DNA of 64,000 nt from Dehalococcoidia bacterium (GTDB lineage Bacteria; Chloroflexota; Dehalococcoidia; Plut-88900), in assembly GCA_965249275.1 (NCBI GenBank), contig CBDFLQ010000005.1, forward strand, positions 160,001-224,000, written 5' to 3'. Below, piece after piece: positions 12,226-52,961 of the stretch (the stretch's first letter is position 1; every line of letters begins with the position of its first letter). Below the pieces are notes generated by a model that was not told the origin of the DNA, ran no database searches, and worked only from the letters and a program-made list of their open reading frames with translations. The translations under genes and the position numbers were made by a program.

Positions 12226-12654
12226 ATGCGAAAAAATTATTGGTGGCTGCCAAGATTGGTTGATTTCGACGTAACTAGTGAAGCAACTCTACAATACAAT
12301 TGCATTGCGTGGGCACTGGGCAATAACTCCTCGTGGTTTGATCCGACTTTAGACTATGCCTACTGGCCTGAATGCATACCGAACGATGTTACCGTAGATT
12401 CCATTGTGGAGCTATTTCGAAGTGAGGGATTTGAGCGGTGTAAGGATGGCAGCTTAGAGCAAGGGTATGAAAAAATCGCTATCTACGCCCTCGAATATGA
12501 AGTCACTCATGTGGCACGTCAACTAGTCGATGGAAAATGGACGAGCAAATTGGGCAAATACGAAGACATAGTTCATTCATCTCTTGAGGACTTAGAAGGA
12601 GACGGGTTCCATTCGTACGGACGATTGACAGCATTTATGATTCGCCCCCATTAG
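12226..12654 (+). CDS. Papain-like Cys-His domain protein (DUF7689-like)
   Basis: YNCIAWALG, THVARQ and WTSKLG motifs. Confidence 0.7.
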   Translation: MRKNYWWLPRLVDFDVTSEATLQYNCIAWALGNNSSWFDPTLDYAYWPECIPNDVTVDSIVELFRSEGFERCKDGSLEQGYEKIAIYALEYEVTHVARQLVDGKWTSKLGKYEDIVHSSLEDLEGDGFHSYGRLTAFMIRPH

Positions 12655-12999
12655 CCCACTTTGGATTTGAAACCCCCACTTTGTGAATTGCGGCGCAATG
12701 TTGACATAAGGTTATTGGATCTTTAGTATGCTAGTTACCCTAGGGACTACGGGATTACACCCGAGAATGGAGGGTCGGATGAAAAGGATTCATCTCCTGT
12801 TTAGCCGTCTCGAAATTGATTGTAGCGGCCCCGCCGGAGACACAGGTATGGGCGGCATGATGTTGGGGGCGTCTCCGGTGGGGAACCGGAAGTCCGTCTC
12901 GAGGCCCTAACCAGCAAGCTCCCCTTACGGGATGCTCCTCCGGTTTAGATCACCGGAACAGAAAAGCCAGAGACGGCCAGCAATAATTTTGGTATCAAT

Positions 13000-36360: not shown

Positions 36361-36400
36361 CTGTCATCCCGAGGCTCCGCGAGGGATCTAGGACTTGCCC
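36361..36400 (+). repeat. REP-like repeat family A, forward copy
   Basis: CTGTCATCCCGAGGCTCCGCGAGGGATCTAGGACTTGCCC. Confidence 0.92.
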
Positions 36401-37194: not shown

Positions 37195-39309
37195 CTACCT
37201 CACAAAAACCGACAACCCTATAAGTTGCTCACTAAGGAAGCCCTCACCTGTGTCCCGCCAGACGGTTACCGTGTACACGCCGGGCTTTTGGATAAGCCCA
37301 CTCACGTCTGCCGAGAAACTGAATCTTTCATCGGTCTCACTCCAAGAATCTGCGACTACTTCATTGCCGTCTAGGTTTGAGTAGTGCCACCCCGGTTCAG
37401 GGGGTTCAAGTATACGTATGACCGGATCGCCACATCTCGTCGTCTGCCCTCCCCCGACACAATAGCTGTCCAGTCTCTCTATCTGTGCCACAGACATCCG
37501 CACAGGTGTGGGATCGTAGTAGATGCTCACTACTTGCCCAATGTCGATTCCCCGCTCTCGTTTTACGAGTTCCAAGGAAAGAGTCCCATTCCGAGTAAGC
37601 GTGGGCCTCGACCGAACAGTTACTGCTCCTCCCTCGAAGTGCTGTACGAATGCCACTCTCTTCTTGTTCCAAAAGATGCCTATGTTGACTGCCCTGTGGC
37701 TCTCCCCAAGTATGTTATCCCGATGGCCCCAGTCCGCATGCGCATCGTCGTACATCATCGCCCACTGGTGATTAGTTATTGCTTCCTCTGGGTCTGATAA
37801 ATTGCACCTCACCAACCACGAATCGCAATTTTGAGTTTGCCATCTTTGGTCGGTCCACCCACTGAAGGCCGCATTCTCGCTCGCGTAGCTCGTGCCCCCG
37901 TTCTGTGTGTAGACCATATATGGCTTACGGCCATCCACCCACCAGTGGCCCAGATAACCATGTTCGACCATGTCTTGGGCATGGAGCTGGGCAGCAATGT
38001 TGGAGCCCAAAACTACAGTTGATAGTCCATATTTGGCCCTGTCCTCGTTAATCAACTTCAAAGCATGCTCTCGCAAACACTCTATGTCGTTACTGCATGG
38101 CCGAGGCGTCGCAGTAGGCCGTGGTGTTGCCGTCGGAGCAGGAATAGTGGTGGGCCTTGGCGCAGGCGTGGGCACGGGTGTAGCGGTGGGAGTTGGGAGT
38201 GGAACAGGTGTAGAAGTGGGTATCGGGGTGGAGGTCGGTACCGGAGTTGAGGTCGGTATCGGCGTCGGCGAGGGCACCGGCGTCGGCGATGGCACAGGCG
38301 TGGGCACGACGCTGCACGACGGCAGTCCGAGGGTGTTCAGATCGTCGTCGTAGATAGCAGCCTGCAGTTCCTCCGATATGCACCCTGACAACGGGTTCCC
38401 CTCCACCAGCAGGCTGGTCAACCTGCCCATGTTGAACAGGTTGATTGGCACTACACCATTCAAGTTGTTGTCGATCAGATACAGGAGGGTGACCCTGCCA
38501 TCCGAGTCCGTATCCACCCCATACCACTCCCTAAGGGGCGCGTCGCTGAGCCAGTTGCGATTGTCCGTCCAGTTCGAACCATCGGTGGCTTCATACAGCC
38601 GGACGAGTGCCTCCCGGTCGGTGGCCGGGGATTGCACGTCGGGTGGGAGGGGGAAAGGCACCGGAGTTGGGGTGAGAACCGGGGTAGCAGTAGGGCCAAG
38701 GGTTGGCGTCGGGGGCAGGGCTGTTGGAGGAGCCGGCGTAGACGTTGGGGACGGGACCGCTTCTTCTCCCTCATCAACAAAGTACGGCAAGGCCAAGTAG
38801 ACCCGGACAACCCCTCCGGCAATCAACAAGACCAGACAAGCAAGAATTAGGCATCGCCGTATTTGCTTACATCCCCGATGTTGACCTCTTCCAGCATCTG
38901 TCTTACGTCCTTGAGTTTCTTCGGCAGGACGTCTATCTCCACCCCTCGAGGCTGATTCCCTAGCCCTCCGTTCCGCCCCGGCCTTTCGTGCGACTTCCCT
39001 TGCAACCCGAGCCTTCTCTACTGCGTCTTCCGCTTGACGTACAGTTTCCTTATCTCTCCGCTTACTCTGTGCTTCATGAGCAGCTTCCCTTGCTCTGCGG
39101 GCGGTTTCACTCTTTTCGCCTGACTTATACTCCCCACCATGCCGTCTCACCGGTCCCGACAGGAACCCTTTCCCAAAACACCTGGGGCAGCGCACCCACC
39201 GTCCGCCGGGATCACGACTCGCGTACTGCCCATGCACTCTGCCATGACCACCGCACAGGTCGCACTCGTACAGAAAAATCTCGTGACCCTGGTCTCGGTG
39301 CTGGCCCAC
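37195..39309 (-). CDS. Membrane-anchored multidomain protein: CxxCxGxG zinc finger, TM, Pro/Thr linkers, LRR cap and CAP/SCP domain
   Basis: CDLCGGHG...CPRCFGKG, a hydrophobic helix, DREALV.LY.AT.G.NW....WLS, then LIN.DR, AQ.HA.DM, EN.A and WGHRDNIL. Confidence 0.78.
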   Translation of the reverse strand: MGQHRDQGHEIFLYECDLCGGHGRVHGQYASRDPGGRWVRCPRCFGKGFLSGPVRRHGGEYKSGEKSETARRAREAAHEAQSKRRDKETVRQAEDAVEKARVAREVARKAGAERRARESASRGGDRRPAEETQGRKTDAGRGQHRGCKQIRRCLILACLVLLIAGGVVRVYLALPYFVDEGEEAVPSPTSTPAPPTALPPTPTLGPTATPVLTPTPVPFPLPPDVQSPATDREALVRLYEATDGSNWTDNRNWLSDAPLREWYGVDTDSDGRVTLLYLIDNNLNGVVPINLFNMGRLTSLLVEGNPLSGCISEELQAAIYDDDLNTLGLPSCSVVPTPVPSPTPVPSPTPIPTSTPVPTSTPIPTSTPVPLPTPTATPVPTPAPRPTTIPAPTATPRPTATPRPCSNDIECLREHALKLINEDRAKYGLSTVVLGSNIAAQLHAQDMVEHGYLGHWWVDGRKPYMVYTQNGGTSYASENAAFSGWTDQRWQTQNCDSWLVRCNLSDPEEAITNHQWAMMYDDAHADWGHRDNILGESHRAVNIGIFWNKKRVAFVQHFEGGAVTVRSRPTLTRNGTLSLELVKRERGIDIGQVVSIYYDPTPVRMSVAQIERLDSYCVGGGQTTRCGDPVIRILEPPEPGWHYSNLDGNEVVADSWSETDERFSFSADVSGLIQKPGVYTVTVWRDTGEGFLSEQLIGLSVFVR

Positions 39310-40783: not shown

Positions 40784-41302
40784 ATGCCCGAACCCACCCA
40801 AGATATGGGGCTCGTAACCACCTTCATCGCCGAGTCCATCGGCCAGCCCGGCAAACGTACTTTCCGGCTCCTCTTGGGTTCGGATGCGGGCACTGCCGTC
40901 ATCTGGCTTGAAAAAGAGCAGCTCCTGGAGCTAAGCCTCCATCTCAAACGGACAGTCGGCATGCTCGACGAGACCGAGCAGCCCCCCACCCCCAGCCAAG
41001 AATACCCGGGCCCCGAGACCCCCGTCGTAGAGTTCAAGCTCGGCAAGCAAGCTATAGAGTTCGACGAAGAGCACTCTGTCTTCCGTTTCTGGAACTACGA
41101 CGTAGAAGATGAGTCCAACGTAGCCTCCCTGGTCTTCGAAGCAACCATAGCGCAGGTCGAGCACTTCTCCGATGAAAGCCTCAAGGTCTGCTCCTCCGGT
41201 CGACCCATCTGCCAGCTCTGCCACCAACCCATCGATCCCGACGGCCACTTCTGCGCCCGCTCCAACGGCCATCCCATCAACGCGGTCGAGAGGTTGCAGT
41301 AA
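40784..41302 (+). CDS. DUF3090 family protein
   Basis: IGQPGKRTF.L, WLEKEQ and GRP.C.LC..PIDPDGHFC.RSNG motifs. Confidence 0.9.
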   Translation: MPEPTQDMGLVTTFIAESIGQPGKRTFRLLLGSDAGTAVIWLEKEQLLELSLHLKRTVGMLDETEQPPTPSQEYPGPETPVVEFKLGKQAIEFDEEHSVFRFWNYDVEDESNVASLVFEATIAQVEHFSDESLKVCSSGRPICQLCHQPIDPDGHFCARSNGHPINAVERLQ

Positions 41303-41303
41303 C

Positions 41304-42074
41304 GTGGCACGGGAGGATGAGGGCACCGAGAGCCCGGCCCCGCCTAGCATCGACCCTAACCTCCACCCCGATATCTGCCGCGACCTAATCCGTTCCTCCG
41401 CAGTCAAATGCGATCAGATTCTCCGGGGTTCTAACTACACCTTCCTGGTCGAACTCACCCTTGACGGTAAGCCCTTCGAATACGGCGTCTACAAGCCCCA
41501 GCGCGGCGAAAATCCCCTCTGGGACTTCCCCATCGGCACCCTATACAAACGGGAGGTCGCCGCCTATGTTCTCAGCGAAGCCCTCGGCTGGCACTTCGTC
41601 CCTCCCACCGTCATATGGGATGGCCCTTATGGTGAAGGCTCCCTGCAGCTCTTCATCCGCGACTCCCATACAACCCACTATTTCGAGCTTCGCGACACTC
41701 ACCCTGAGCAGGTGAAGCCCATCGCAGTTTTCGATCTGATGGTCAACAACACCGATAGAAAAGGGGGCCACTGCATCAAGGACCCGGGTGGCAAGGTATG
41801 GGGCATCGACCACGGCCTGACTTTCAGCATCGAGTCCAAGCTCCGCACCGTGATCTGGGACTTCGGCGGTGAGAAGATCGCGCAAGACACCCTCACCCCG
41901 ATAGCCCGGGAACTGGCCCGCTTCTACAACCCCGAGGGCCTTGCTACCATGCTCCACCCTCTCCTAGACTCCGACGAGATCGACAGCCTGGCCAGGAGAA
42001 TGCAAGCCGTCCTCCAGGACCCCGTCTTCCCCATCCTCAGAAGCCGCTATGAAGTCCCCTGGCCCCTGGTCTAA
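41304..42074 (+). CDS. SCO1664 family protein (PI3/PI4-kinase-like fold)
   Basis: GSNYTF, VYKP..GE.PLWDFP.GTL..REVAAY, NNTDRKGGH and IDHGLTF motifs. Confidence 0.9.
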   Translation: MAREDEGTESPAPPSIDPNLHPDICRDLIRSSAVKCDQILRGSNYTFLVELTLDGKPFEYGVYKPQRGENPLWDFPIGTLYKREVAAYVLSEALGWHFVPPTVIWDGPYGEGSLQLFIRDSHTTHYFELRDTHPEQVKPIAVFDLMVNNTDRKGGHCIKDPGGKVWGIDHGLTFSIESKLRTVIWDFGGEKIAQDTLTPIARELARFYNPEGLATMLHPLLDSDEIDSLARRMQAVLQDPVFPILRSRYEVPWPLV

Positions 42075-42117: not shown

Positions 42118-42156
42118 TGTCATCCCGAGGCCCCGCGAGGGATCTAGGACTTGCCC
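42118..42156 (+). repeat. REP-like repeat family A, forward copy
   Basis: 39-bp core identical to the copies at 44484 and 48254. Confidence 0.92.
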
Positions 42157-42204: not shown

Positions 42205-43113
42205 CTAAGAACTTCCCCCAAAAACCCCCTTCACCTTATCCACAAGCGTCTCGTGTCTCGCGTACCGCGCCAGGTACCGCACCATCTCCTCACTGCCCAC
42301 CATTATCGGCGAGTGCCAGTCCCTTAGGCGCGCGCCACCGCCCTTCCCCTCCCCCGACGCATTGCCAAACCTGCAAAACTCATGCCACTGCTTCTTTGCC
42401 CTGTCGTACGTCAGCACCGAGCCTGCCGCCTCTTTCGCCAACGCTATGCCCGCCGCCACGTCCCAGATCCGAGGTGCTGTGAACACCGAGTATTGGAAAA
42501 CTCCGCTCGATGTCAGGGCCATTTCGTAAGCCAGGCTCCCGGGCCCACGCGCCTCGCCAATGGGCGCACTAGCGCCCGCATTCTTGCCGTACAACAGCCT
42601 GAAGTCTCGATGAAAAATAGCCAGTTGACCGGGCTGTGGCACCGAGTTCGATCGCACGGTAATCGGCGTCTCGTCCATAAATGCCCCACCACCCTTGCAG
42701 GCGTGGAACAGCGCTCCTTCGGCCTTCGCCGGCCAGGGCGTCCATATGCACCCTACCTCGGGCACACCTCTGTTCAATACCCCTATCGAGACCGCGTATA
42801 TAGGCAGGCCGTTAATGTAGTTGAGCGTGCCGTCCAGCGGGTCCAGAACCCAAAGGAAGTCGGAATCCTCGGGCTTCTCGTCCGTCCCCTCTTCACCCAC
42901 TATCCCGTGGCCCGGGTATCGACGCCTGATCTCTCCCTTCAGGTAAGCTTCGCTCTCCTTGTCCGCCTCCGAGACCAGGTCCGACTTGCTTCCCCCCTTC
43001 CCATGCACACCTCCCACGTGGCCAAAGTGCGACTCCAGTATCCTGGCCGCCCCTTTCGCCATCTCGATGGCCGAGTCTTTGATATCTGCCAGCGAGATGG
43101 CTTCTTGTCCCAT
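42205..43113 (-). CDS. Inositol monophosphatase family protein
   Basis: VSEAD, GEEG, WVLDPLDGTLNY and WDVAAG motifs. Confidence 0.93.
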   Translation of the reverse strand: MGQEAISLADIKDSAIEMAKGAARILESHFGHVGGVHGKGGSKSDLVSEADKESEAYLKGEIRRRYPGHGIVGEEGTDEKPEDSDFLWVLDPLDGTLNYINGLPIYAVSIGVLNRGVPEVGCIWTPWPAKAEGALFHACKGGGAFMDETPITVRSNSVPQPGQLAIFHRDFRLLYGKNAGASAPIGEARGPGSLAYEMALTSSGVFQYSVFTAPRIWDVAAGIALAKEAAGSVLTYDRAKKQWHEFCRFGNASGEGKGGGARLRDWHSPIMVGSEEMVRYLARYARHETLVDKVKGVFGGSS

Positions 43114-43129
43114 TCCTTTTTCTACGCTC

Positions 43130-43612
43130 CTACAGCCCGGTATCCGAGTCCAGCAAAACGTCCCGAAGCAGCTCTACTGCAGCCGCCGACGCCATCTCCC
43201 GGTTTTCAGCCCGATCGCCGGAAAACCGCCGTTCTACACACACGTCTATCTCATTCCCCACAACCGCTACGAAGAATAGCCCGACCGGCTTGGCCCTTGT
43301 ACCGCCCGTCGGGCCCATCACCCCCGTCGCCGAGACCGCCAGGTCAGACCCTATTAGCCGTCGGGCCCCTTTGGCCATTTCCCGCGCCGTCACCTCCGAA
43401 ACCGACCCCTCACGAATCATTACTTCTTTGGGAATGCCCAGCACATTCTCCTTTATATCGTTGGCATACGCCAAAACTCCCCCAACAAAGAACCTCGAGC
43501 TCCCCGGCACGCTGGTCAGCTTGGCCGCTATCAACCCCGAGGTACATGCCTCCGCCACGGACACCGTAAGCCCTCGCTCCTTCAGAATTCCTGCAACTTC
43601 CTCTTCGATCAA
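43130..43612 (-). CDS. CinA C-terminal domain protein (PncC-like)
   Basis: VAEACTSG, VPGSS, YAN..K...LG and TGVMGP.GG...KPVG motifs. Confidence 0.9.
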   Translation of the reverse strand: MIEEEVAGILKERGLTVSVAEACTSGLIAAKLTSVPGSSRFFVGGVLAYANDIKENVLGIPKEVMIREGSVSEVTAREMAKGARRLIGSDLAVSATGVMGPTGGTRAKPVGLFFVAVVGNEIDVCVERRFSGDRAENREMASAAAVELLRDVLLDSDTGL

Positions 43613-43718
43613 ATCTCCCCCTTCAATGCCCGTTTTTTATTACCTCCCCAATTATAGCCCCCAAACCTCCTCCTTCCCCTTTCCGGCACCCCGTCCCGGA
43701 GCCGTAATCGATCCCCAC

Positions 43719-44330
43719 CTAAGACCCCACCTCCACACTGATATCCGTAGGCGTGCCGCTATTCGTCGCATTCTGGTCCTGCGGACACGCCGACACGCAC
43801 ACCCAGCAGTCCATCTCCACCCTGAGCAGCACGTAGTCCCCTGCCTTAGTCTCCGGCGCCGCTATGTCCATCCTACCGTCTATAAACACGCGAAAGTTGG
43901 TGAACAGGTTAACCGGCTGCGGTATCTCCACCCCTGGCACCCCGATGGCCTCCATACACTTCCGAAGGTTCTCCTCACAGCTGGCATGCCACCCCTCCAC
44001 CCCCAATTCCCGGTACCTGCTGGGATTGCACGACGCGTACAGCAAGTCGTGAATTCCGGGGCTATGGTCCTCGACAAGCGTGAGGATAGGTCGGCGCTCC
44101 TGGGTATAGAACGCCTCTTCCTCCTTCGGAAACAGCCTGGAAATGGAGGGCCTCGTATGTTCGGCGCTCAGGTACTCTTTCACGTTCTCCACGTTGAAGG
44201 CAAACAGGTCCACGGCCTGCCCGCCATGCAGATCTATCACCTTAACCAGCTCACCCTTACTTGCCCGAAACGCCTTCCCTTCCCGAGCCGGTACATGGTA
44301 ATCCAATCGTTTCTGCCTTAGCTCCGTCAT
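43719..44330 (-). CDS. DUF1989 / urea carboxylase-associated family protein (second copy)
   Basis: G.QAVD, LSAEHTR, HDLL..SC, HASCEEN and SACPQD motifs. RBS GGAGGTG before ATG 44330. Confidence 0.9.
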   Translation of the reverse strand: MTELRQKRLDYHVPAREGKAFRASKGELVKVIDLHGGQAVDLFAFNVENVKEYLSAEHTRPSISRLFPKEEEAFYTQERRPILTLVEDHSPGIHDLLYASCNPSRYRELGVEGWHASCEENLRKCMEAIGVPGVEIPQPVNLFTNFRVFIDGRMDIAAPETKAGDYVLLRVEMDCWVCVSACPQDQNATNSGTPTDISVEVGS

Positions 44331-44483
44331 CTGCTCACCTCCGCTCTCGATTCGCTTGTTTCCCATGACAGTTTAATCCGTCCAAGCTCCCGCATACACC
44401 CCCACCCCCTCAACCATCCCGATAACCTCACCAACACTTTTCAGACATCCTTTGCGACCTACCCAGCATCCCACTCTTGACTG

Positions 44484-44522
44484 TGTCATCCCGAGGCCCC
44501 GCGAGGGATCTAGGACTTGCCC
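44484..44522 (+). repeat. REP-like repeat family A, forward copy
   Basis: 39-bp core identical to the copies at 42118 and 48254. Confidence 0.92.
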
Positions 44523-45072
44523 AACCACACCCTTCCCCCTTTACGCCTTCCCATTCCTCGTGGTTGCCCTACCCCCTCCCCACTGCCCCCCAATCAAAGG
44601 ATCACCCTATGTGACACCAACCCCTTGACTCCATCAGACCATACGTACTAACCTCCTCTTGGTCCCCGTCTGCACAGCCGACTCACTACCGCCGACATCC
44701 TCACCTCTTCTTTCCGAACGGTTTTCCCTCCGACCCAACAACCCCATACACCTAATCCTGAAGGACCTTGCCCAATTCTTAAACTCCAGCAGCCATTCCA
44801 ACACCCCTCTCCCCGAGAATTTCTCCTTCCCTGGCCTATGATTCAAATTCCCTCCGACAAGCAGACAATCAGAATTCGTGCCTGCTGCCCGCAAACAATC
44901 AAACACAAAGCTGATTCCTTTGATTGCCCCCTTCGACTTTGATAGTAGTATGTCAACTTGCCCCCACGCCTTGCCTCCCACCCCCTATCCGCCTAAACTA
45001 TCCCAGCATCTCTGGTATAACATTGTCTAATACACACAATAACCAATTGCATGGATTCACACCCTGGGGAGA

Positions 45073-45306
45073 ATGGACATAGAAGGAGACATAGCAGTAG
45101 CCGACCACTGGGACGCCGGTCACATGGGCTGCGGTGAGGTTGTCATCATGCTCAGGATGCGATTTCAACCCCTCGCTCCTGGCCAGGTCTTCAAGCTCAC
45201 GACCCAGGACCTGGGCGCCCACGAAGACATCCCCGCCTGGTGCCGGCTCACGAGTCGCCGCCTCCTCAAAGCCGACCACCCCCACTACTGGATCGAGCAG
45301 AAATAG
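45073..45306 (+). CDS. TusA/SirA-like sulfur carrier protein
   Basis: WDAGHMGCGE, L.PGQV and D.GA.EDIPAWC motifs. Confidence 0.85.
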   Translation: MDIEGDIAVADHWDAGHMGCGEVVIMLRMRFQPLAPGQVFKLTTQDLGAHEDIPAWCRLTSRRLLKADHPHYWIEQK

Positions 45307-45324
45307 ACCTTGGAAGGAGTCGAC

Positions 45325-45687
45325 ATGTCCGGAAAGTTCTGCGTCAGCCTCACCCATGCCAAGGACAACACCGACAAAGCCACCGTGGCCTTCGTAATAG
45401 CCAACGCCGCCTTGGGTTCGGAGAAGGAGACCATGGTCTTCCTCAGCACCGAGGGAGTTCGTGTTGCCGAGAAGGGTTATGCCGACGACATCAACGAGGA
45501 AGGGTTCATGCCTCTCAAGGATCTGATGGACAGTTTCGCCGCATTCGGTGGTGATATCTACGTCTGTGCCCCGTGCTTCAAGAAGCGCGGCCTCGACGAG
45601 AACAACCTCGTTGACGGGGCCACGATAGTAGGAGGCGCCAAGCTCGTAGAGTTCCTCTCCGATAACAGCCCTTCCGTCTCTTACTGA
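45325..45687 (+). CDS. DsrE/DsrF-like protein
   Basis: ATVAF..A.AA, VFLS.EGV and YVCAPCF.KRG motifs. RBS GAAGGAG. Confidence 0.88.
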   Translation: MSGKFCVSLTHAKDNTDKATVAFVIANAALGSEKETMVFLSTEGVRVAEKGYADDINEEGFMPLKDLMDSFAAFGGDIYVCAPCFKKRGLDENNLVDGATIVGGAKLVEFLSDNSPSVSY

Positions 45688-45708
45688 CCTCCCGCACCCG
45701 AGCCTCTC

Positions 45709-47229
45709 ATGGACCCTATCGAACGTCACGTATACCAGCCCGACGTCAGCTTCGACGGCGGTGATCTCGACTGCGGCGGCGGTCTGCTCCTGCTCATCCG
45801 CCGTCACATCGACCCCATGGAGCGCGGCGGCCTCCTGGAGATCCTCTCCACCGACTCCACCGTCGAGGTCGAGCTGCCAGCCTGGTGCCGCATGACCAAG
45901 AACGAGATGGTCTCCTGGACCAAGAGGAATGGTCAGCGCAGCTTCCTGGTCTGCAAGGGTCTTATGGAAGAGCGTCGGCCCACGGCCACCCTCCCACCCC
46001 CCGCCTCCATAGGCGAACAGCTGCGCGTGAAGGTCACCATCCCCGACTCCCTCCCCCCACCCTCCCCTGCTCCCGAAATCACGCCTTTGTCGGTCATGGG
46101 TATCGGGAGTTGGCCCCGGCCCCGCTGGATGCTCCAGGCAGTCCACGACAGGCTGGAAGGGCGCCTCAATGAAGAGGACTTCCAAGCCACCGCTAACGAT
46201 GCCGCTCGACTCTCCATCGACACCCAACTTCGCGCCGGTGTCGACGTGGTCACAGACGGCGAGCAGCGCCGCGACAGCTATGCCAGCTTCGTAGGCGGCC
46301 TTCTCGACAACTGCCAGCTCATCCCACTAACCGATCTCACCGCTATGGTCGACGACCCAGACAAGTTCGAGAAGGAGCTGCGCGCCCTCGATGTGCCCGC
46401 TGGCGACGTACGCCACCCTGTCGTCTACGGCAAGCTCGGCCGAAGCAAACCCCTCGCACTCCACGAGCTTGAATTCGCCGCCCAATGCACCGACAGGCCC
46501 ATCAAGGTCGCCCTCCCCGGCCCTTACCTCCTCACCCGTACCATGTGGCTCGACTGCCTCACCGACCTCCCCTACGAGACCCGTGAAGACCTAGCCCAAG
46601 ACGTCGTCCGGGTCCTCCGCGAAGAGCTACACTTCCTTCTTGCATCCGGTGCAGCCCTAGTCCAGTTCGACGAGCCCGTTCTCACTGAGGTCGTATTCGG
46701 CGCCCCAAGCGGCAACCGCACCTTCATGTGCGGTGCCCTCAGCGAAAAACTGGCCCCTGCCGCAGAGCTTGATTTTGCCGCAGGCCTCCTCAACGACGTC
46801 GTTACCGGCCTCCCACCCGACCGCCTTGGCCTCCATATCTGCCGCGGCAACTGGACTCGCGACGAGTCTGCCGCCCTCTCCGGCGACTACCGCCCCCTCC
46901 TCGACCTTCTCGAACAAGTCCAGGTAGGGACCCTATTCCTGGAGCTCTCAACCCCCCGCGCCGGTGAAGCTGCAGTTCTCCGTTCTCTCCCCGACGACAA
47001 GCGCATCGCCATCGGCGTCGTCAACCAGAAGCTCGACGCTGTGGAGAGCCCCGAGGACATCAGCCGGAACATAGACCTCGGCCTCAACCTCTTCGGAAGT
47101 GAACGCCTTCTCCTCACCCCTGACTGCGGCTTCGCAACCTTCGCCGACAACCCCGTCGCCTCCGCCACCATCGCCGAGGCCAAGCTCCGGGCCATAACAC
47201 AATCCCGAGACCTGGTACCTGCATCATGA
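45709..47229 (+). CDS. TusA-like domain fused to a cobalamin-independent methionine synthase-like catalytic barrel
   Basis: N-terminal FDGGDLDCG...LPAWC, then IGSWPRP, TDGEQRR, LPGP, QFDEP, HICRGN and PDCGF (H-x-C / E / C zinc ligands). Confidence 0.88.
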   Translation: MDPIERHVYQPDVSFDGGDLDCGGGLLLLIRRHIDPMERGGLLEILSTDSTVEVELPAWCRMTKNEMVSWTKRNGQRSFLVCKGLMEERRPTATLPPPASIGEQLRVKVTIPDSLPPPSPAPEITPLSVMGIGSWPRPRWMLQAVHDRLEGRLNEEDFQATANDAARLSIDTQLRAGVDVVTDGEQRRDSYASFVGGLLDNCQLIPLTDLTAMVDDPDKFEKELRALDVPAGDVRHPVVYGKLGRSKPLALHELEFAAQCTDRPIKVALPGPYLLTRTMWLDCLTDLPYETREDLAQDVVRVLREELHFLLASGAALVQFDEPVLTEVVFGAPSGNRTFMCGALSEKLAPAAELDFAAGLLNDVVTGLPPDRLGLHICRGNWTRDESAALSGDYRPLLDLLEQVQVGTLFLELSTPRAGEAAVLRSLPDDKRIAIGVVNQKLDAVESPEDISRNIDLGLNLFGSERLLLTPDCGFATFADNPVASATIAEAKLRAITQSRDLVPAS

Positions 47230-47909
47230 CCGGCCCGGCTGGCCCTCCACCCACCGACGACGAGGCCATCCAGGTCCAGGGCTACCAGCGGTTCCGTGCC
47301 CCGGAAGGCCATTCCGGCCAAGGCATCCTGATCAACACCTCCCGCGGCAGCATATTCAGTCTTTTTCACCCCACCGAGACCATGGACGCCGCCGTCCTTT
47401 GGGTCTGGGGCGCCAGCGGGGGCGTCACCGGCCCCGCCGACAGCATTTACGTCCGCCTCGCCGAGCGCCTCGCCAGTGAAGGCATAGCCTCCCTCAGGCT
47501 CGACTACCGTTTACCCAATGACCTCTACGAATGCGTACTCGACACCCTCGCCGGGACAACCCTGCTGCTGGGTGTTGGCTTCAAGCGATTGGCCTTGGTT
47601 GGCCACTCATTCGGAGGGGCTGTGGTCATAGCCGCCGCCCCCTACAATGACAAGATAGTAGCCGTAGTGGGTCTGTCCAGCCAGAGCGCAGGTGCGCAAC
47701 GTGTTTCGGAAGTCGCCCCCAGGCCCTTGCTCCTGGTCCACGGCGCCGACGACGCCATAATCCCCGTCCGAGCCTCCCAGTTCATCTATGACCTCGCCGA
47801 TCAACCCAAGGAACTCCGCTACTTCCAGGGCGCGGGCCACGGCCTGAACGAGTGCCGTGAAGAGCTGGACGAACTCCTTCACGGCTGGCTTAGGGATAAG
47901 CTGGCTTAG
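47226..47909 (+). CDS. Alpha/beta hydrolase
   Basis: GHSFGG nucleophile elbow, LLLVHG..D and GAGH. ATGA overlap with the upstream gene. Confidence 0.88.
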   Translation: MTGPAGPPPTDDEAIQVQGYQRFRAPEGHSGQGILINTSRGSIFSLFHPTETMDAAVLWVWGASGGVTGPADSIYVRLAERLASEGIASLRLDYRLPNDLYECVLDTLAGTTLLLGVGFKRLALVGHSFGGAVVIAAAPYNDKIVAVVGLSSQSAGAQRVSEVAPRPLLLVHGADDAIIPVRASQFIYDLADQPKELRYFQGAGHGLNECREELDELLHGWLRDKLA

Positions 47910-47919
47910 GGACTAGCAG

Positions 47920-48333
47920 ATGAAGCTAAAGTACGCTGTCGTCTATGAACAAACGCCCAACAACTTCTGCGCCTACGCTCCTGACCTGCCCGGTTGCGTC
48001 AGTACGGGCAAGACTTGGGACGAAGTCCGAGAGATGATGCGGGAGGCAATCGGATTCCATTTAGAGGGAATGCTGGAACATGGCGAATCCGTCCCGGAAC
48101 CGCGAATGTCCATTGAAGACGCTAAGGCCTATCACAACGACCCTCTCTCCAAGCAAGAGCAAAAGGCCCTTGCAGCCTACGGCGCTGATGCTCCCAACCT
48201 GTCAACCACTTTCGACATGGCAGAGATTGAGGTAAACCTCGCCCCTACCCCCATGTCATCCCGAGGCCCCGCGAGGGATCTAGGACTTGCCCCTTCACAT
48301 CCCTCTCGACCATCCCCTCCCTACCCCTCCTGA
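47920..48333 (+). CDS. hicB: HicB-like antitoxin (orphan), with C-terminus reading through a REP-like repeat
   Basis: YAVVYE....N..AY.PDLPGCVS.G.T..E....MREAI.FHLEGM...G..VPEP motif. Confidence 0.88.
   Translation: MKLKYAVVYEQTPNNFCAYAPDLPGCVSTGKTWDEVREMMREAIGFHLEGMLEHGESVPEPRMSIEDAKAYHNDPLSKQEQKALAAYGADAPNLSTTFDMAEIEVNLAPTPMSSRGPARDLGLAPSHPSRPSPPYPS
48254..48292 (+). repeat. REP-like repeat family A, forward copy inside the hicB 3' end
   Basis: 39-bp core identical to the copies at 42118 and 44484. Confidence 0.92.
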
Positions 48334-49568
48334 TTACACACATCCAGCGCCGTAGCTGCCATCACCTTGGCGCAGGTGACCATGTCGCTGATGCGGACGT
48401 AGTGGTCCGGTTCATCTTCCCGTGCGTCCCAATCGCCCCCGGGTCCGTAAAGCACGCACGGAATGCCTGCCTTCCACATGTGGGTGGTGTCGTTCCCCGA
48501 GTAGGAGTTCGGGGTCTTGCTCCCGACGTAGGCCAACTCGCCCCCCGTAACCGCCCTGAACCCCCGAGCCACTGCCTTCACGATCTCCTCGTCCGTGGGC
48601 ATGTTCATCGGCTCCATCACCGTGCGAAGAACTCTGTAATCTGCCGGGGGCGGCATCTCGATCTCATAGTCGAACTCGGGGTCCGACGCTTTGACTCCAT
48701 CCAACGCCCGCCTCACCTCTTCCAAAACACCCGCAGAGGTCTGCCCAGGGACCATGCGCCCGTCAACTAGCGCCGTGCAGAAGTCCGGCACGAAGTTCGG
48801 GCCGTTAATAACATGGTTCCTCCCCTGTCCCCCGATAACCGCCCCAACGTGCAGCCGAGGCAAGGATGGCAGAGCCGCAAACGGTGTGTGCGAAAGCTCA
48901 AGCCCATTTATCGCCTCAATGGCCTTGGCCATCTTCTGAATGGCGTTGACCCCGCTCTCTTTCTGGCTTATATGCCGAGACTCGCCCAACACGTGTACCG
49001 CCATCTCCAGCCATCCCGCGTGGATCGTGAGTACGGTGTCCGCATCGTTCGGCTCCGCCACTATCGCCATGTCGGGCCGGTACCCGTGCTCCAGGGCGTA
49101 CTCCGTCCCCACCCCTCCCTGCAGCTCCCCGACAACGCACGCCACCTGTAGGTCACCTTTAAGTGACGCCTTGGCCCGGCGCACCGCCTCAGCCGCCGCC
49201 ACTATCGACGCAACACCGCCCTTCATGTTGTATATCCCCGCCCCATACAGCCGGTCACCTTCCACCGAGGACTTCCACGGGTCACGCTTCCAACCCATTG
49301 AAAGCGGGTCCTGGTCTATGTGCCCGTTCAGCATCAGGGTTTTCCCACCTCCCGTGCCCCGCAGCGTAGCAATGACCTGGTATCGGCCCGGATCGACCTC
49401 CTGAAGGTCGACCTCATATCCCCATCGCCGGAAGTTCGATGCCAGGAACAGCGCTATCTGAGATTCCTCGGTCTTGAAGCTGGGTATGTCGATTAGCTTC
49501 TTCGCAAGCCCGACAACCCAGTCTTCCTTTACCCGATTCGTTACTCTGTCTAAAGTTGTTGCAGCCAT
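48321..49568 (-). CDS. M20/ArgE-like metallohydrolase, paralog 1
   Basis: LMLNGHID, LYGAGIYNMKGG, VVGELQGG and VAEP motifs. Confidence 0.9.
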   Translation of the reverse strand: MAATTLDRVTNRVKEDWVVGLAKKLIDIPSFKTEESQIALFLASNFRRWGYEVDLQEVDPGRYQVIATLRGTGGGKTLMLNGHIDQDPLSMGWKRDPWKSSVEGDRLYGAGIYNMKGGVASIVAAAEAVRRAKASLKGDLQVACVVGELQGGVGTEYALEHGYRPDMAIVAEPNDADTVLTIHAGWLEMAVHVLGESRHISQKESGVNAIQKMAKAIEAINGLELSHTPFAALPSLPRLHVGAVIGGQGRNHVINGPNFVPDFCTALVDGRMVPGQTSAGVLEEVRRALDGVKASDPEFDYEIEMPPPADYRVLRTVMEPMNMPTDEEIVKAVARGFRAVTGGELAYVGSKTPNSYSGNDTTHMWKAGIPCVLYGPGGDWDAREDEPDHYVRISDMVTCAKVMAATALDVCNQEG

Positions 49569-49583
49569 TCTCGACCTCCCCGG

Positions 49584-50828
49584 CTAGGCCGGCAGGTTAC
49601 AGACTTCCAGTGCCGTTAGGGCGTGAGTCTTTGCACACTCGACCATTTCGCTCACGTTGACGAAGGTATCGGCCTCTCCACCGAGCGACCTGTCGCCCCC
49701 CGGCCCGTTCAGGACACACGGAATGCCCGCCTTCCAAAGGTGGCACGTGTCGTTGCCCGCGTAGGACCGAGGCAGTATCGCTCCGACATTCTCGGGTGGC
49801 GCACCCATGTGCCCTTCAATGGCCCGTGACACCGCCCCGACTATGTACTCGTCCTTCGGGATGTCCACCGGGTCCATGGTCACGGCTACTCCCTTGTATT
49901 TCGCAGGCGGTGGTATCTCCAGCTCCCATTTCAGTTCCGGGTCCTCGGCGCTCAGGCCGTTCAGGACCTTCCTCACGTCCTCCTCTACGGTCTCGGCGGT
50001 CTGTCCGGGGACTATGCGCACGTCCCAGATGGAGGTGCAGAAGTCGCTCACGTAGTTGGGGCCCTTCAGGTCGTGGTCCCGGCCCCGCCCCCCGATAATT
50101 GCCCCACAGTTTATCCTCGGCAGCCCCGGCAGTTCGGGGTGCGGCGTATGCCTCAGTTCGACTTTGTCCACCGCATCGATCACCTTCATCATCTTCCCAA
50201 TCGCGTCGACCGCCTCTTCCCTCACCGTGATGTGCTTGGAGTACCCCAGGACGTTGATCGCCATCCCGATAACTCCGGCATGGATAGTCATGATAGTCTT
50301 CGACCCGAAGGGCTCGGCTACAATGGCCATGTCCGCCGTCACCCCGCTTTCGAGAGCGTGGACCGTCCCCACCCCTCCCTGCAGCTCTCCCACCACGCAC
50401 GCCACTACTATGTCTCCCTTAAGCTCCACCTTAGACTTACGAATAGCCTCCGCCGCCGATATCATCGAAGCGACTCCACCCTTCATGTTGAAGGCTCCAC
50501 CCCCGTACAGCCGGTCCCCTTCCCAGCTGGGCGTCCACGGGTTCCGTTTCCAGCCCATCGCCAGCGGGTCGATGTCTATGTGCCCGTTCAACATCAGGCT
50601 CTTCCCCCCACCCGACCCCTTAAGCGTAGCTATGGTCTGATACCGCCCCGGCTCCACTTCCTGTAGATCGACCTCATATCCCCTCCGCCGGAAGTACGTG
50701 GCGAGATACTTGGCTACCTTCTGCTCTTCCGTCTTGAAGCTCGGTATGCGGAGGATCCTGCTGCACAGGTCCACCACCTCCCGATCCTTGATCTTTCCCA
50801 GAACCCTATCCTTCACTGCTGCATCCAT
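49584..50828 (-). CDS. M20/ArgE-like metallohydrolase, paralog 2
   Basis: LMLNGHIDIDP, YGGGAFNMKGG, VVGELQGG and VAEP motifs. Confidence 0.9.
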   Translation of the reverse strand: MDAAVKDRVLGKIKDREVVDLCSRILRIPSFKTEEQKVAKYLATYFRRRGYEVDLQEVEPGRYQTIATLKGSGGGKSLMLNGHIDIDPLAMGWKRNPWTPSWEGDRLYGGGAFNMKGGVASMISAAEAIRKSKVELKGDIVVACVVGELQGGVGTVHALESGVTADMAIVAEPFGSKTIMTIHAGVIGMAINVLGYSKHITVREEAVDAIGKMMKVIDAVDKVELRHTPHPELPGLPRINCGAIIGGRGRDHDLKGPNYVSDFCTSIWDVRIVPGQTAETVEEDVRKVLNGLSAEDPELKWELEIPPPAKYKGVAVTMDPVDIPKDEYIVGAVSRAIEGHMGAPPENVGAILPRSYAGNDTCHLWKAGIPCVLNGPGGDRSLGGEADTFVNVSEMVECAKTHALTALEVCNLPA

Positions 50829-51575: not shown

Positions 51576-52826
51576 CTACTTCTCCTGGTTGCACCAGTCC
51601 ATCGCCGCCAGGGCATACGTCTTCGCCAGCTGCACCATGCTCGGCACTATGACGTAGGAGTCGGGCTCACCCTTCTGGTCCCGGCCGTTCTCGGCGCCCA
51701 TCAGGCACACTGGAATACCCGCCTCCCAAATGTGGCAGCTGTCGTTGCCCGCATAGGATTGGGTCAGTATCGCCCCTATCTTGTCCGGCGCCCGACCCGA
51801 AACCTTACGGTAGGCCTTCTCCAGGTTCTGCACTATCACGTTGTCTTTGGGCACGTCCATCGGGTTCATGAACACCGTCATCACCTTGTACTCCGGCGGC
51901 ACCGGCGTCACGATTTCGTACTCGAAGGTCGGGTCCTCTTCCTTGATCTTGCTCAGTGCCCGGTCAAGGTCTGCCTTGACCGTCACGTGCGACTGCCCAG
52001 GCACGATCCTCGCATCGACTATCACCGTGCAGTAGTCACAGGTGAAGTTCGGCCCTTTCAGGTCGTGGTTCCTCCCCCTCCCCCCGATTATCGTCCCAGC
52101 GATAATCCGTGGCAGATCGGGCAGGTCGGGCCTGTGCTCGTAGGTGAATTCTACGTTCTTGATTGCCGGTATGGCCTTTGTCATCATCTCCAGGGCGTCG
52201 ACGGCCAGATGAGAGCGGCTCACGTGCTGCGACTGCCCGACGGTGCTGATAGCCAGCTCCACGACTCCTGCGTGAGTCGTCATTATGTTGTCTCCGTCGC
52301 CCGTGGGCTCCGCGACATACGCTCCGTCAGTTCTCAGTCCTTGGTTCAAGGCGTAGACCGTCCCCACCCCTCCCTGTAGCTCCCCGACAACGCACGCCAC
52401 GACAAGGTCGCCCTTCATCGGGGCCTTGGCCTTCCGAATAGCCTCGGCAGCGGTGATGATCGCCGTCACGCCGCCCTTCATGTTGTTGATCCCAGCACCG
52501 TACAGCCGGTCCCCTTCCCAACTGGGAGTGAACGGCTCCCGCACCCAGCCCATCGCCAGCGGGTCGATGTCTATGTGCCCGTTCAGCATCAGGCTCTTGC
52601 CCCCACCCGACCCCTTCAGCGTCGCTATCGTCTGATACCGACCCGGCTCCACTTCCTGCAAATCTACCTCATACCCTCTGCGACGGAAGAACCCGGCCAG
52701 GAACCTTGCAACTTTCTGCTCTTCCGTCTTGAAGCTAGGCATGGAGATCAGGTCGCTGGCCAGCTTGACTGTCTGCTCGGTCTTGATCTGACGAAGGACG
52801 CGTTCCTCGACCGCTTGGTCAACCAT
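51576..52826 (-). CDS. M20/ArgE-like metallohydrolase, paralog 3
   Basis: Same motifs as paralogs 1 and 2. RBS GGGAGGT before ATG 52826. Confidence 0.9.
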   Translation of the reverse strand: MVDQAVEERVLRQIKTEQTVKLASDLISMPSFKTEEQKVARFLAGFFRRRGYEVDLQEVEPGRYQTIATLKGSGGGKSLMLNGHIDIDPLAMGWVREPFTPSWEGDRLYGAGINNMKGGVTAIITAAEAIRKAKAPMKGDLVVACVVGELQGGVGTVYALNQGLRTDGAYVAEPTGDGDNIMTTHAGVVELAISTVGQSQHVSRSHLAVDALEMMTKAIPAIKNVEFTYEHRPDLPDLPRIIAGTIIGGRGRNHDLKGPNFTCDYCTVIVDARIVPGQSHVTVKADLDRALSKIKEEDPTFEYEIVTPVPPEYKVMTVFMNPMDVPKDNVIVQNLEKAYRKVSGRAPDKIGAILTQSYAGNDSCHIWEAGIPVCLMGAENGRDQKGEPDSYVIVPSMVQLAKTYALAAMDWCNQEK

Positions 52827-52961
52827 TCTTACCTCCCGAGACACATGGGTTCTTTAGGAAGAAGGACTGTTTGCCCTTCTCAAGGACGAGGCGAGTATAT
52901 TATCAGCCCCGACCACAAACAAGCCGAAACGCCACTCCACCCCCGTAGGTGCACCCCCTAG

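Follow-up and report, generated by a model that had tools for sequence, protein, structure and literature searches.

A conserved TusA-DsrE-MetE-like cassette from Dehalococcoidia and other phyla with a possible role in chalcogen or methyl exchange

Core MetE-type enzymes take a methyl group from folate, from corrinoid proteins or, in the case of MesD, from an unidentified oxygen-dependent source, and we know of none that works with cysteine-based carrier proteins. A further single-barrel member of the MetE family is epoxyalkane:coenzyme M transferase, in which a zinc-activated thiol attacks an electrophilic carbon. The TusA and DsrE families are persulfide carriers. A gene cluster that brings these two kinds of protein together was examined in a 64,000-nucleotide (nt) stretch of DNA from a Dehalococcoidia bacterium (assembly GCA_965249275.1, contig CBDFLQ010000005.1, positions 160,001 to 224,000), referred to here in its full length as the window; all positions are those of the window unless a genome or locus handle is given. 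In this cluster, a stand-alone TusA-like protein, a DsrE-like protein, and a fusion of a second TusA-like domain to a single MetE-type barrel are encoded by consecutive genes. Public databases annotate the fusion either as a putative methionine synthase or as a “TusA family protein”; the label of the DsrE-like protein is “predicted peroxiredoxin.” No description of the TusA::MetE fusion or of the gene trio was found in full-text literature searches (supplementary tables lay outside these searches), and neither TusA nor DsrE is mentioned in the available portion of Price 2021 (PMC7857596). The joining of a core MetE enzyme to a TusA/DsrE relay may be a new combination of known parts, possibly with new chemistry.

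The best match to the fusion in the PDB, both by sequence (E = 1.9e-23; phmmer, 86 bits) and by fold, was the MesD structure 3RPD. As described in the available portion of PMC7857596, the MesD/MesX system resembles the fusion in having a single MetE-type barrel without a folate domain and with the same zinc-binding and Ser/Glu/Asp residues; MesD needs a partner other than folate and is usually found together with MetH or MetE. The zinc ligands given there, in Escherichia coli numbering, are His641, Cys643, Glu665, and Cys726, and the carboxyl and amino groups of homocysteine are held by Ser433, Glu484, and Asp599. The fusion is only 22% identical to MesD over the barrel (Foldseek), below the ~55% identity criterion of Price in the same portion of the paper, and it differs in its N-terminal TusA domain, two insertions, three extra conserved cysteines, and cysteine-carrier partners. 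MesX (DUF1852; PF08908) was not found with Pfam among the neighbors in the window or in the flanks of 14 loci (124 ORFs); none was found in the genome from which the window comes (the source genome), in a search whose control also matched in no genome. The C-terminal barrel of MetE (1T7L, 1XDJ) shares the fold of the fusion, and its GS(W/F)P, DGE, DEP, H-x-C, E, and C elements align; however, MetE has an N-terminal barrel that builds the folate site, and the fusion has none. Epoxyalkane:coenzyme M transferase, compared by description only, uses coenzyme M as the thiol, whereas the fusion keeps the amino-acid triad.

On the carrier side, the gene order of the cassette, TusA and then DsrE, agrees with what we take to be the known direction of persulfide transfer. 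The relay from TusA to TusBCD/DsrEFH (1DCJ/3LVJ) likewise combines a TusA fold bearing a cysteine at the persulfide position with a DsrE fold bearing a conserved loop cysteine. The cassette departs from this relay in having C-G-x-x in place of CPxP, in encoding one DsrE-like protein with a CxxC motif rather than the three paralogous subunits of a DsrEFH/TusBCD heterohexamer, and in its terminal partner, which is a MetE-like enzyme instead of TusE/DsrC. YedF (TIGR03527), according to the available part of Lin 2015 (PMC5322559), contains the same two folds as TusA-like and DsrE-like domains, has a CxxC motif (CGxC) in its DsrE-like domain, and shows a statistical association with SelD; this association is a precedent for TusA-like and DsrE-like folds serving selenium. 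The two domains of YedF are fused, whereas the cassette uses separate genes, with CAPC instead of CGxC and CG instead of CPxP, and no association of YedF with a MetE-like enzyme is reported in that part of the paper.

The conserved trio and its carrier proteins

Stretches encoding a relative of the fusion numbered 217 (one genome per species), and the locus counts given here refer to the best 80 of these 217, sorted by tblastn with the window proteins. The best 80 fusion relatives were 62 to 96% identical over nearly their full length, were all from metagenome-assembled genomes (MAGs), and came from Dehalococcoidia, Latescibacterota, Terriglobia/Acidobacteria, Planctomycetes, Verrucomicrobia, Burkholderiales, Binatia, Methylomirabilota, and other lineages. 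In a word-indexed protein search, all of the matches listed (120) were ~500 amino acids (aa) long and at least 74% identical to the fusion. The order TusA-DsrE-fusion was found in 62/80 loci, where the successive genes are separated by a median of 23 and 38 nt, respectively. DsrE and the fusion occurred without the stand-alone TusA in 11/80 loci (10 Binatia-type loci and 1 at a contig end), the fusion occurred alone in 4/80, and the upstream sequence was insufficient to judge in 3/80. The initial annotation had named a lack of conservation elsewhere as grounds for refuting its proposal; with the trio kept in 62 of the 80 loci, those grounds fall away. No further conserved neighbor was recognized with Pfam among the 124 flanking ORFs of the 14 loci, which are phylogenetically spread, and the conserved unit is the TusA-DsrE-fusion trio. 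The cassette spans at least eight phyla and occurs in ~3 to 9% of genomes across four sampled lineages. The range of identity over these phyla implies a strongly selected, so far unnamed function, and similarity this high between phyla points to a strongly constrained unit that has spread horizontally.

The trio occupies most of a run of four co-oriented ORFs at positions 45073 to 47909 (+ strand), each of which was recovered as initially annotated. The stand-alone TusA-like carrier (45073..45306, +) is 77 aa long. The persulfide-carrying cysteine of E. coli TusA is presumably Cys19. In the alignment to E. coli TusA (1DCJ/3LVJ), Cys20 of the carrier falls on the C of “RCPEP” and Cys57, within “PAWCR,” falls on the second conserved cysteine; both cysteines were invariant in the orthologues (63/63). 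The N-terminal TusA-like domain of the fusion (45709..45960, +; residues 1 to 84) has corresponding cysteines at Cys22 (“DLDCGGG”) and Cys60 (“PAWCR”), and Cys22 was kept in 21/21 fusion rows of A1, a 35-row alignment of fusions (21 rows) and relatives without a TusA domain. The replacement of CPxP by a CG motif in both domains, reported in the initial annotation, was borne out as C-G-E-V in the free protein and C-G-G-G in the fused domain, and the orthologues likewise lack CPxP.

The DsrE-like protein (45310..45687, +) is 125 aa long from the TTG at 45310 or 120 aa long from the ATG at 45325 and matched PF02635 with 58.6 bits (cutoff, 22.7). It holds Cys11 and C86-A-P-C89, and these cysteines were nearly or fully invariant in the orthologues (Cys86, 74/74; Cys89, 73/74; Cys11, 73/74). 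Its nearest solved structure was 3MC3, a DsrE/DsrF-like protein in which the cysteine of “YVC” aligns with Cys86, and the protein is 66 to 98% identical across phyla. The invariant carrier cysteines, together with the gene order kept in 62/80 loci, place the arrangement beyond chance. With NCBIfam models, the YedF model TIGR03527 did not match the small proteins of the cassette at an E value of ≤0.01 or ≤10, SaoD-type models did not match the window DsrE-like protein even at an E value of ≤10, and TusD and TusC models gave 11.6 to 18.5 bits against cutoffs of 79 to 94; TusA scores of the small proteins were far under the NCBIfam cutoffs. Identities of the small proteins as YedF, SaoD, TusD, or TusC were therefore without NCBIfam support.

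The fusion enzyme and its relatives

The fusion (45709..47229, +) is 506 aa long and consists of the TusA-like domain, a Pro-rich linker (45961..46092, +; residues ~85 to 128), and a MetE-type (beta/alpha)8 barrel (46093..47229, +). The barrel belongs to the MetE family (PF01717, Meth_synt_2; 91.2 bits versus a cutoff of 21). Its zinc ligands H376, C378, E412, and C473 and its homocysteine triad S134, E185, and D321 aligned (HMMER) with those of Thermotoga maritima MetE (1T7L) and 3RPD, and all seven residues were at least 90% conserved across A1. In these alignments, “GIGS134WPRP” was matched to “TIGSFPQT” and “TAGSLPKP,” “TDGE185Q” to “VHGEFE” and “SDGEQ,” “QFD321EP” to “QIDEP” and “QFDEP,” “H376IC378RGN” to “HICYG,” “LE412LS” to “IEAS,” and “PDC473GF” to “PDCGL” and “TNCGM.” Three further cysteines of the barrel were conserved in A1: Cys202 (“DNCQ”) and Cys283 (“LDCL”) in fusions only, and Cys341 (“FMCGA”), noted initially, in common with the closest paralogues without a TusA domain. 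The folate-binding N-terminal barrel of MetE is missing from the fusion; a match to PF08267 (18.5 bits versus a cutoff of 27) fell inside the catalytic barrel itself. The best NCBIfam methionine synthase score of the fusion was 150 bits against a cutoff of 406, and its scores were far below all such cutoffs.

The predicted fold of the fusion is MetE/MesD-like. An AlphaFold2 model built on A1 had a mean pLDDT of 87.3 and a pTM of 0.77, with values below 50 only at residues 93 to 103 and 333 to 338. Foldseek searches with this model returned 3RPD first (target-normalized TM score, 0.80 to 0.82), followed by MetE C-terminal barrels (1T7L among them) and 1YPX. Relative to 3RPD, the fusion has two insertions, at residues ~196 to 233 and ~327 to 358. 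The TusA domain was modeled as beta-alpha-beta-alpha-beta-beta (pLDDT, 81 to 95). In the linker, disorder was predicted only at residues 93 to 103, and residues ~110 to 128 are conserved and were modeled with high confidence. A predicted complex of the barrel (residues 105 to 506), the TusA domain (residues 1 to 92), and zinc gave an ipSAE of 0.00 in two runs, a result that is neutral on docking. The initial annotation had suggested that the carrier cysteine replaces homocysteine or the methyl donor. The first of these roles is unlikely because the amino-acid pocket is intact, with the homocysteine-holding residues S134, E185, and D321 conserved; judged from the conserved residues, the carrier cysteine, if it acts at the active site, more likely acts from the methyl-donor side.

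The closest barrel relatives without a TusA domain were 41 to 47% identical over fusion residues ~110 to 500. One of these is encoded in the source genome (G000:C6:42775-43941; 41% identical to the fusion barrel), where an OsmC-like gene and a gene for a two-domain rhodanese come next (G000:C6:42775-45410; L095:4446-7410). The best NCBIfam match of the OsmC-like protein was “OsmC-related (seleno)protein,” with 48.6 bits, below the cutoff of 95. The Dehalococcoidia class sample contained another 16 genomes with such paralogues, and selD was present in every one (16/16). Where loci of the TusA-less paralogues were examined, an OsmC-like gene was beside or near them in 7/10 and a rhodanese gene was near them in 4/10. 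Small carrier or redox proteins that are cysteine based are thus regular partners of the MetE branch to which the fusion belongs.

A distant MetE-like ORF in genomes of one Dehalococcoidia genus (g9) contains an in-frame TGA at the cysteine of the H-x-C zinc motif (“HLURGN”; L106:4022-5311 in G075, also in G181 and G165), which is a candidate selenocysteine zinc ligand. A gene of this kind would usually be annotated as truncated.

Candidate functions and genomic context

The favored reading, to which we give a balanced chance, is that the trio is a self-contained cassette for chalcogen/methyl exchange between Cys22 and zinc-bound (seleno)homocysteine or (seleno)methionine. Given a zinc site that activates thiols, cysteine chemistry is the obvious interpretation. 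The gene set and order, the conservation of genes and residues, and the fold are observations; a chalcogen as the cargo of the cysteines, which element it is, which way it flows, and what reaction takes place are what this reading would add to them. Under this reading, the stand-alone TusA-like carrier and the DsrE-like CxxC protein would serve a zinc-dependent single-barrel MetE-family enzyme in which a tethered TusA-like carrier domain stands where MetE has its folate-binding N-terminal barrel. The barrel would bind a homocysteine-type amino acid (homocysteine, methionine, or the selenium counterpart of either) whose chalcogen sits on zinc, and Cys22 would approach the open face of the barrel, the side from which folate or a corrinoid protein would offer its methyl group. 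Cys22 and the zinc-bound chalcogenolate would then swap either a methyl group or a chalcogen, the latter being sulfane sulfur or selenium in the form Cys-S-Se-, with C202, C283, and C341 of the barrel as possible way-stations. The DsrE-like protein (C86xxC89 and C11) and the free TusA-like protein (C20) would deliver the group to further partners or collect it from them, and the pathway of SelD (selenophosphate synthetase) is the favored candidate.

Within this picture of chalcogen/methyl exchange, the probability that selenium is the physiological element is put slightly below even. A more specific version, which we consider doubtful, is that the cassette is a selenium salvage/supply machine on a methionine synthase barrel, in which zinc would hold selenomethionine or selenohomocysteine and the DsrE-like and free TusA-like proteins would pass selenium, in protected form, toward SelD. 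In this version, Cys22, as a thiolate or persulfide, would either take the methyl group, for which a selenolate would be a far better leaving group than a thiolate, or swap selenium as a Cys-S-Se- perselenide.

Genomic data showed a moderate, lineage-dependent link to selenium. The selD gene was present in 62/66 fusion genomes, and that of the source genome carries an in-frame TGA. Fusion genomes from other phyla contained selD in 26/28 cases. In an order of Planctomycetes (151 genomes), selD was found in 4/4 fusion genomes versus 29/147 others, and in an order of Verrucomicrobia (151 genomes), it was found in 4/5 versus 53/146 (both orders pooled, one-sided Fisher test, P = 3e-4, a value that is uncorrected for relatedness and hence overstated). 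In six genomes from four phyla, sel genes lay within 10 kb of the cassette. These included three Burkholderiales genomes (G373, G517, and G316) with selD 2.4 to 7 kb from the fusion, beside a cystathionine-beta-synthase-like gene. In G316 (L094:12031-15394), selD is followed, 7 kb from the trio, by a group-1 glycosyltransferase gene and a gene with DinB_2 and FGE-sulfatase domains, an arrangement that we take to resemble the selenoneine genes senC-senB-senA. In a planctomycete (G650), selD, selB, and selA are 3 to 7 kb upstream of the cassette; in a verrucomicrobium (G735), convergent genes encoding a Pyr_redox_2::SelD fusion, SelA, and SelB directly adjoin the trio; and at a Dehalococcoidia locus (L074), selB is 1.2 kb downstream. 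The carrier positions held cysteine and not selenocysteine (Sec) in 11/11 loci checked, the sel-adjacent ones included. The linkage is therefore not explained by a need of the cassette for Sec machinery, and the idea that the cassette itself encodes a selenoprotein was ruled out at these 11 loci.

Several observations weigh against the exchange reading or against selenium as its element. The Pfam TusA (PF01206) scores of the stand-alone protein (27.4 bits) and the fused domain (26.9 bits) are just below the gathering threshold of 28.6; orthologues of the free and fused domains exceed it (43.2, 36.7, 30.1, and 32.2 bits, of which 30.1 and 32.2 are for fused domains). In the class Dehalococcoidia (301 genomes), selD was present in 27/27 fusion genomes, which represent only four genera, and in 201/274 others (228/301 overall, the only count that the unpublished genome G243 enters). 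In Burkholderiales (201 genomes), it was present in 5/7 fusion genomes versus 152/194 others, with no enrichment. Co-occurrence says little in these two of the four lineages because selD is common there. The selD gene of the source genome is on a contig other than that of the cassette, and selD and the fusion are far apart in most genomes with known coordinates. A tblastn search of the 80 loci with ±6-kb flanks gave no match with a single SelD query and one match with a single SelB query, and the sel adjacencies were spotted post hoc. In the 10 Binatia-type loci, effectively one lineage because they are 92 to 95% identical to each other, the DsrE-fusion pair is divergent from metY-metX(-metW), a context that fits methionine/homocysteine biosynthesis as well as selenium. 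In one Dehalococcoidia lineage, a gene for a Fur-family regulator (L045, L051, L056, and L058) and a ZnuA gene (L045, L056, and L058) are divergent from the trio, and in nine Binatia-type loci, FUR (seven loci) and/or CobW (five loci) genes are a few kilobases downstream of the cassette.

The Binatia-type context would suit a fifth folate-independent “core” methionine synthase, in which the TusA-like and DsrE-like proteins supply or regenerate a methyl donor in a MesX-like or corrinoid-like manner or, in a variant of this explanation, keep an oxidation-prone zinc-thiolate site reduced in aerobes. Such a role is improbable, despite the presence of every homocysteine-activation residue and the standing of MesD as the nearest solved relative. 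Methyl groups are not readily donated by a cysteine thioether or a persulfide. No Rfam family, riboswitches included, was found upstream of the cassette in the window (E ≤ 1) or at 10 diverse loci (gathering threshold), and thus no SAM or cobalamin riboswitch was seen there. The selD association and the sel adjacencies would be left unexplained. The inventory of methionine synthases also bears on this explanation. The source genome (2.9 Mb; completeness, 87%) showed no MetH activation domain at that completeness; it encodes a split MetE (G000:C6:923474-925417; L096:2474-4417), in which a gene resembling the N barrel (Meth_synt_1, 101 bits) directly precedes the gene for the catalytic barrel (Meth_synt_2, 271 bits), and several other MetE-like proteins. 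Full-length MetH was present in 5/5 tested genomes of g9, whose genomes are ~2 Mb, and the MetH activation domain was present in 29/37 further fusion genomes. The eight without a MetH match included one with a full-length MetE (493 bits) and six with other PF01717 genes. The fusion was clearly the sole candidate in no tested genome; in one MAG (G314), it was the only PF01717 gene, and the completeness of that MAG was not reported. The fusion is thus almost always an extra copy beside another methionine synthase candidate, which makes a housekeeping methionine synthase role unlikely. Since MesD is usually an extra enzyme too, coexistence is no bar, and the extra-copy status lowers the probability of a methionine synthase without eliminating it.

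The same metX gene, which makes O-acetylhomoserine, and its neighbor metY could equally be read as signs of a sulfur-only persulfide relay. Sulfur would pass from TusA to DsrE, to the tethered TusA domain, and to the zinc site, feeding the methionine branch either by attack on activated homoserine (a homocysteine synthesis independent of PLP) or by formation of homocysteine persulfide. The Pfam DsrE match, the Pfam TusA matches (just under the gathering threshold), and the alignment to E. coli TusA, which relate the small proteins to persulfide carriers, the rhodanese genes near TusA-less paralogues, and a cysteine-desulfurase-like Aminotran_5 gene with a thiol oxidoreductase gene near locus L048 are consistent with such a relay. 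Neither cysteine desulfurase nor rhodanese genes were conserved neighbors of the fusion cassette in the 14 loci, however, and we know of no MetE-family enzyme that carries out gamma-substitution of an amino acid. The sel adjacencies in four phyla and the co-occurrence in Planctomycetes and Verrucomicrobia would remain unexplained unless the machinery serves both elements. A relay confined to sulfur is on balance an unlikely account.

The Fur, ZnuA, and CobW neighbors could be taken to indicate a metallochaperone role, in which the Cys-rich small proteins load, or substitute for the loading of, the zinc site of a MetE isozyme under zinc limitation. In the available portion of Haft 2022 (bioRxiv 10.1101/2022.07.06.499078), SaoD-related CxxC DsrE-like proteins adjoin AztC/AztD zinc uptake genes. 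This role appears very improbable: the Fur/zinc context is confined to two lineages, Fur-family genes are common, the window DsrE-like protein lacks the SaoD-type match mentioned above, and Cys20 of the TusA-like protein is at the persulfide position and not in a typical metal-binding motif.

The fourth ORF of the cluster, an alpha/beta hydrolase gene (47226..47909, +; 227 aa), has several Pfam alpha/beta hydrolase matches and a GHSFGG elbow, is dienelactone-hydrolase-like, and begins at an ATG that overlaps the fusion stop codon as ATGA. MetE-family enzymes activate thiols for alkyl transfer. Together with the co-orientation of the four genes and this overlap in the source genome, such chemistry could suggest an organosulfur pathway of four genes, with the carrier cysteine rather than homocysteine as the alkylated thiol and with the hydrolase completing the sequence. 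The hydrolase was downstream of the fusion in only 6/80 loci (L009 to L014), which are relatives of the window with 84 to 96% identity, and it is a lineage-specific (genus-level) neighbor outside the conserved cassette. The single functional unit that had initially been proposed thus stands for the carriers with the MetE-like enzyme and does not extend to the hydrolase, for which the organosulfur pathway is already largely refuted. The homocysteine pocket is intact, and organosulfur catabolic genes were not conserved among the 124 flanking ORFs; flanking genes vary from phylum to phylum and give no pointer to the organosulfur processing that had been suggested. The probability of this pathway is very small. 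Genes for DUF1989, CinA, inositol monophosphatase, and M20 peptidases were also rejected as members of the module, as they recur only in L009 to L014.

Neighboring features and implications

Other features were observed around the cassette. In two Planctomycetes, a small ORF consisting only of a molybdopterin-dinucleotide-binding domain is directly downstream of the fusion (L109:~12630-12920, +; L110:3857-4192, -). In the window, an ORF for a HicB-like antitoxin (47920-48333, +) has no obvious adjoining HicA gene, and its 3′ end enters a copy of a dispersed 39-nt repeat. This repeat has four copies in the window (36362-36400, 42118-42156, 44484-44522, and 48254-48292, + strand), two of which bracket the block from TusA to HicB, and 19 copies in the source genome (13 forward and 6 reverse); it had no Rfam match in a search of positions 43000 to 48500. 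Variants of the repeat change ATCCC...GGGAT to ATTCC...GGAAT, and because this change is compensatory within a short stem, the repeat could be a REP-like element that forms a structure. Three tandem paralogous M20/M25/M40 peptidase genes (48321-49568, 49584-50828, and 51576-52844, -) lie immediately downstream of the TusA-to-HicB block, an arrangement kept in the closest relatives of the window. Upstream, a DUF3090 gene overlaps a PI3/PI4-kinase-like gene (40784-42074, +). Between positions 38000 and 55000, the GC skew of the + strand was negative throughout (-0.06 to -0.40 in 1-kb windows), regardless of gene strand.

If the cassette is a selenium salvage/supply machine, it would contain the first MetE-fold enzyme in selenium salvage or supply and, for the many bacteria without a recognized donor, would identify a source of the selenium used to make selenophosphate. 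Provided that the selenium link is borne out, the cassette would supply an explanation, open to testing, of how bacteria acquire selenium for SelD and keep it protected. Should that link fail, the cassette would represent a new carrier-sulfur route into the methionine branch or a fifth folate-independent methionine synthase.

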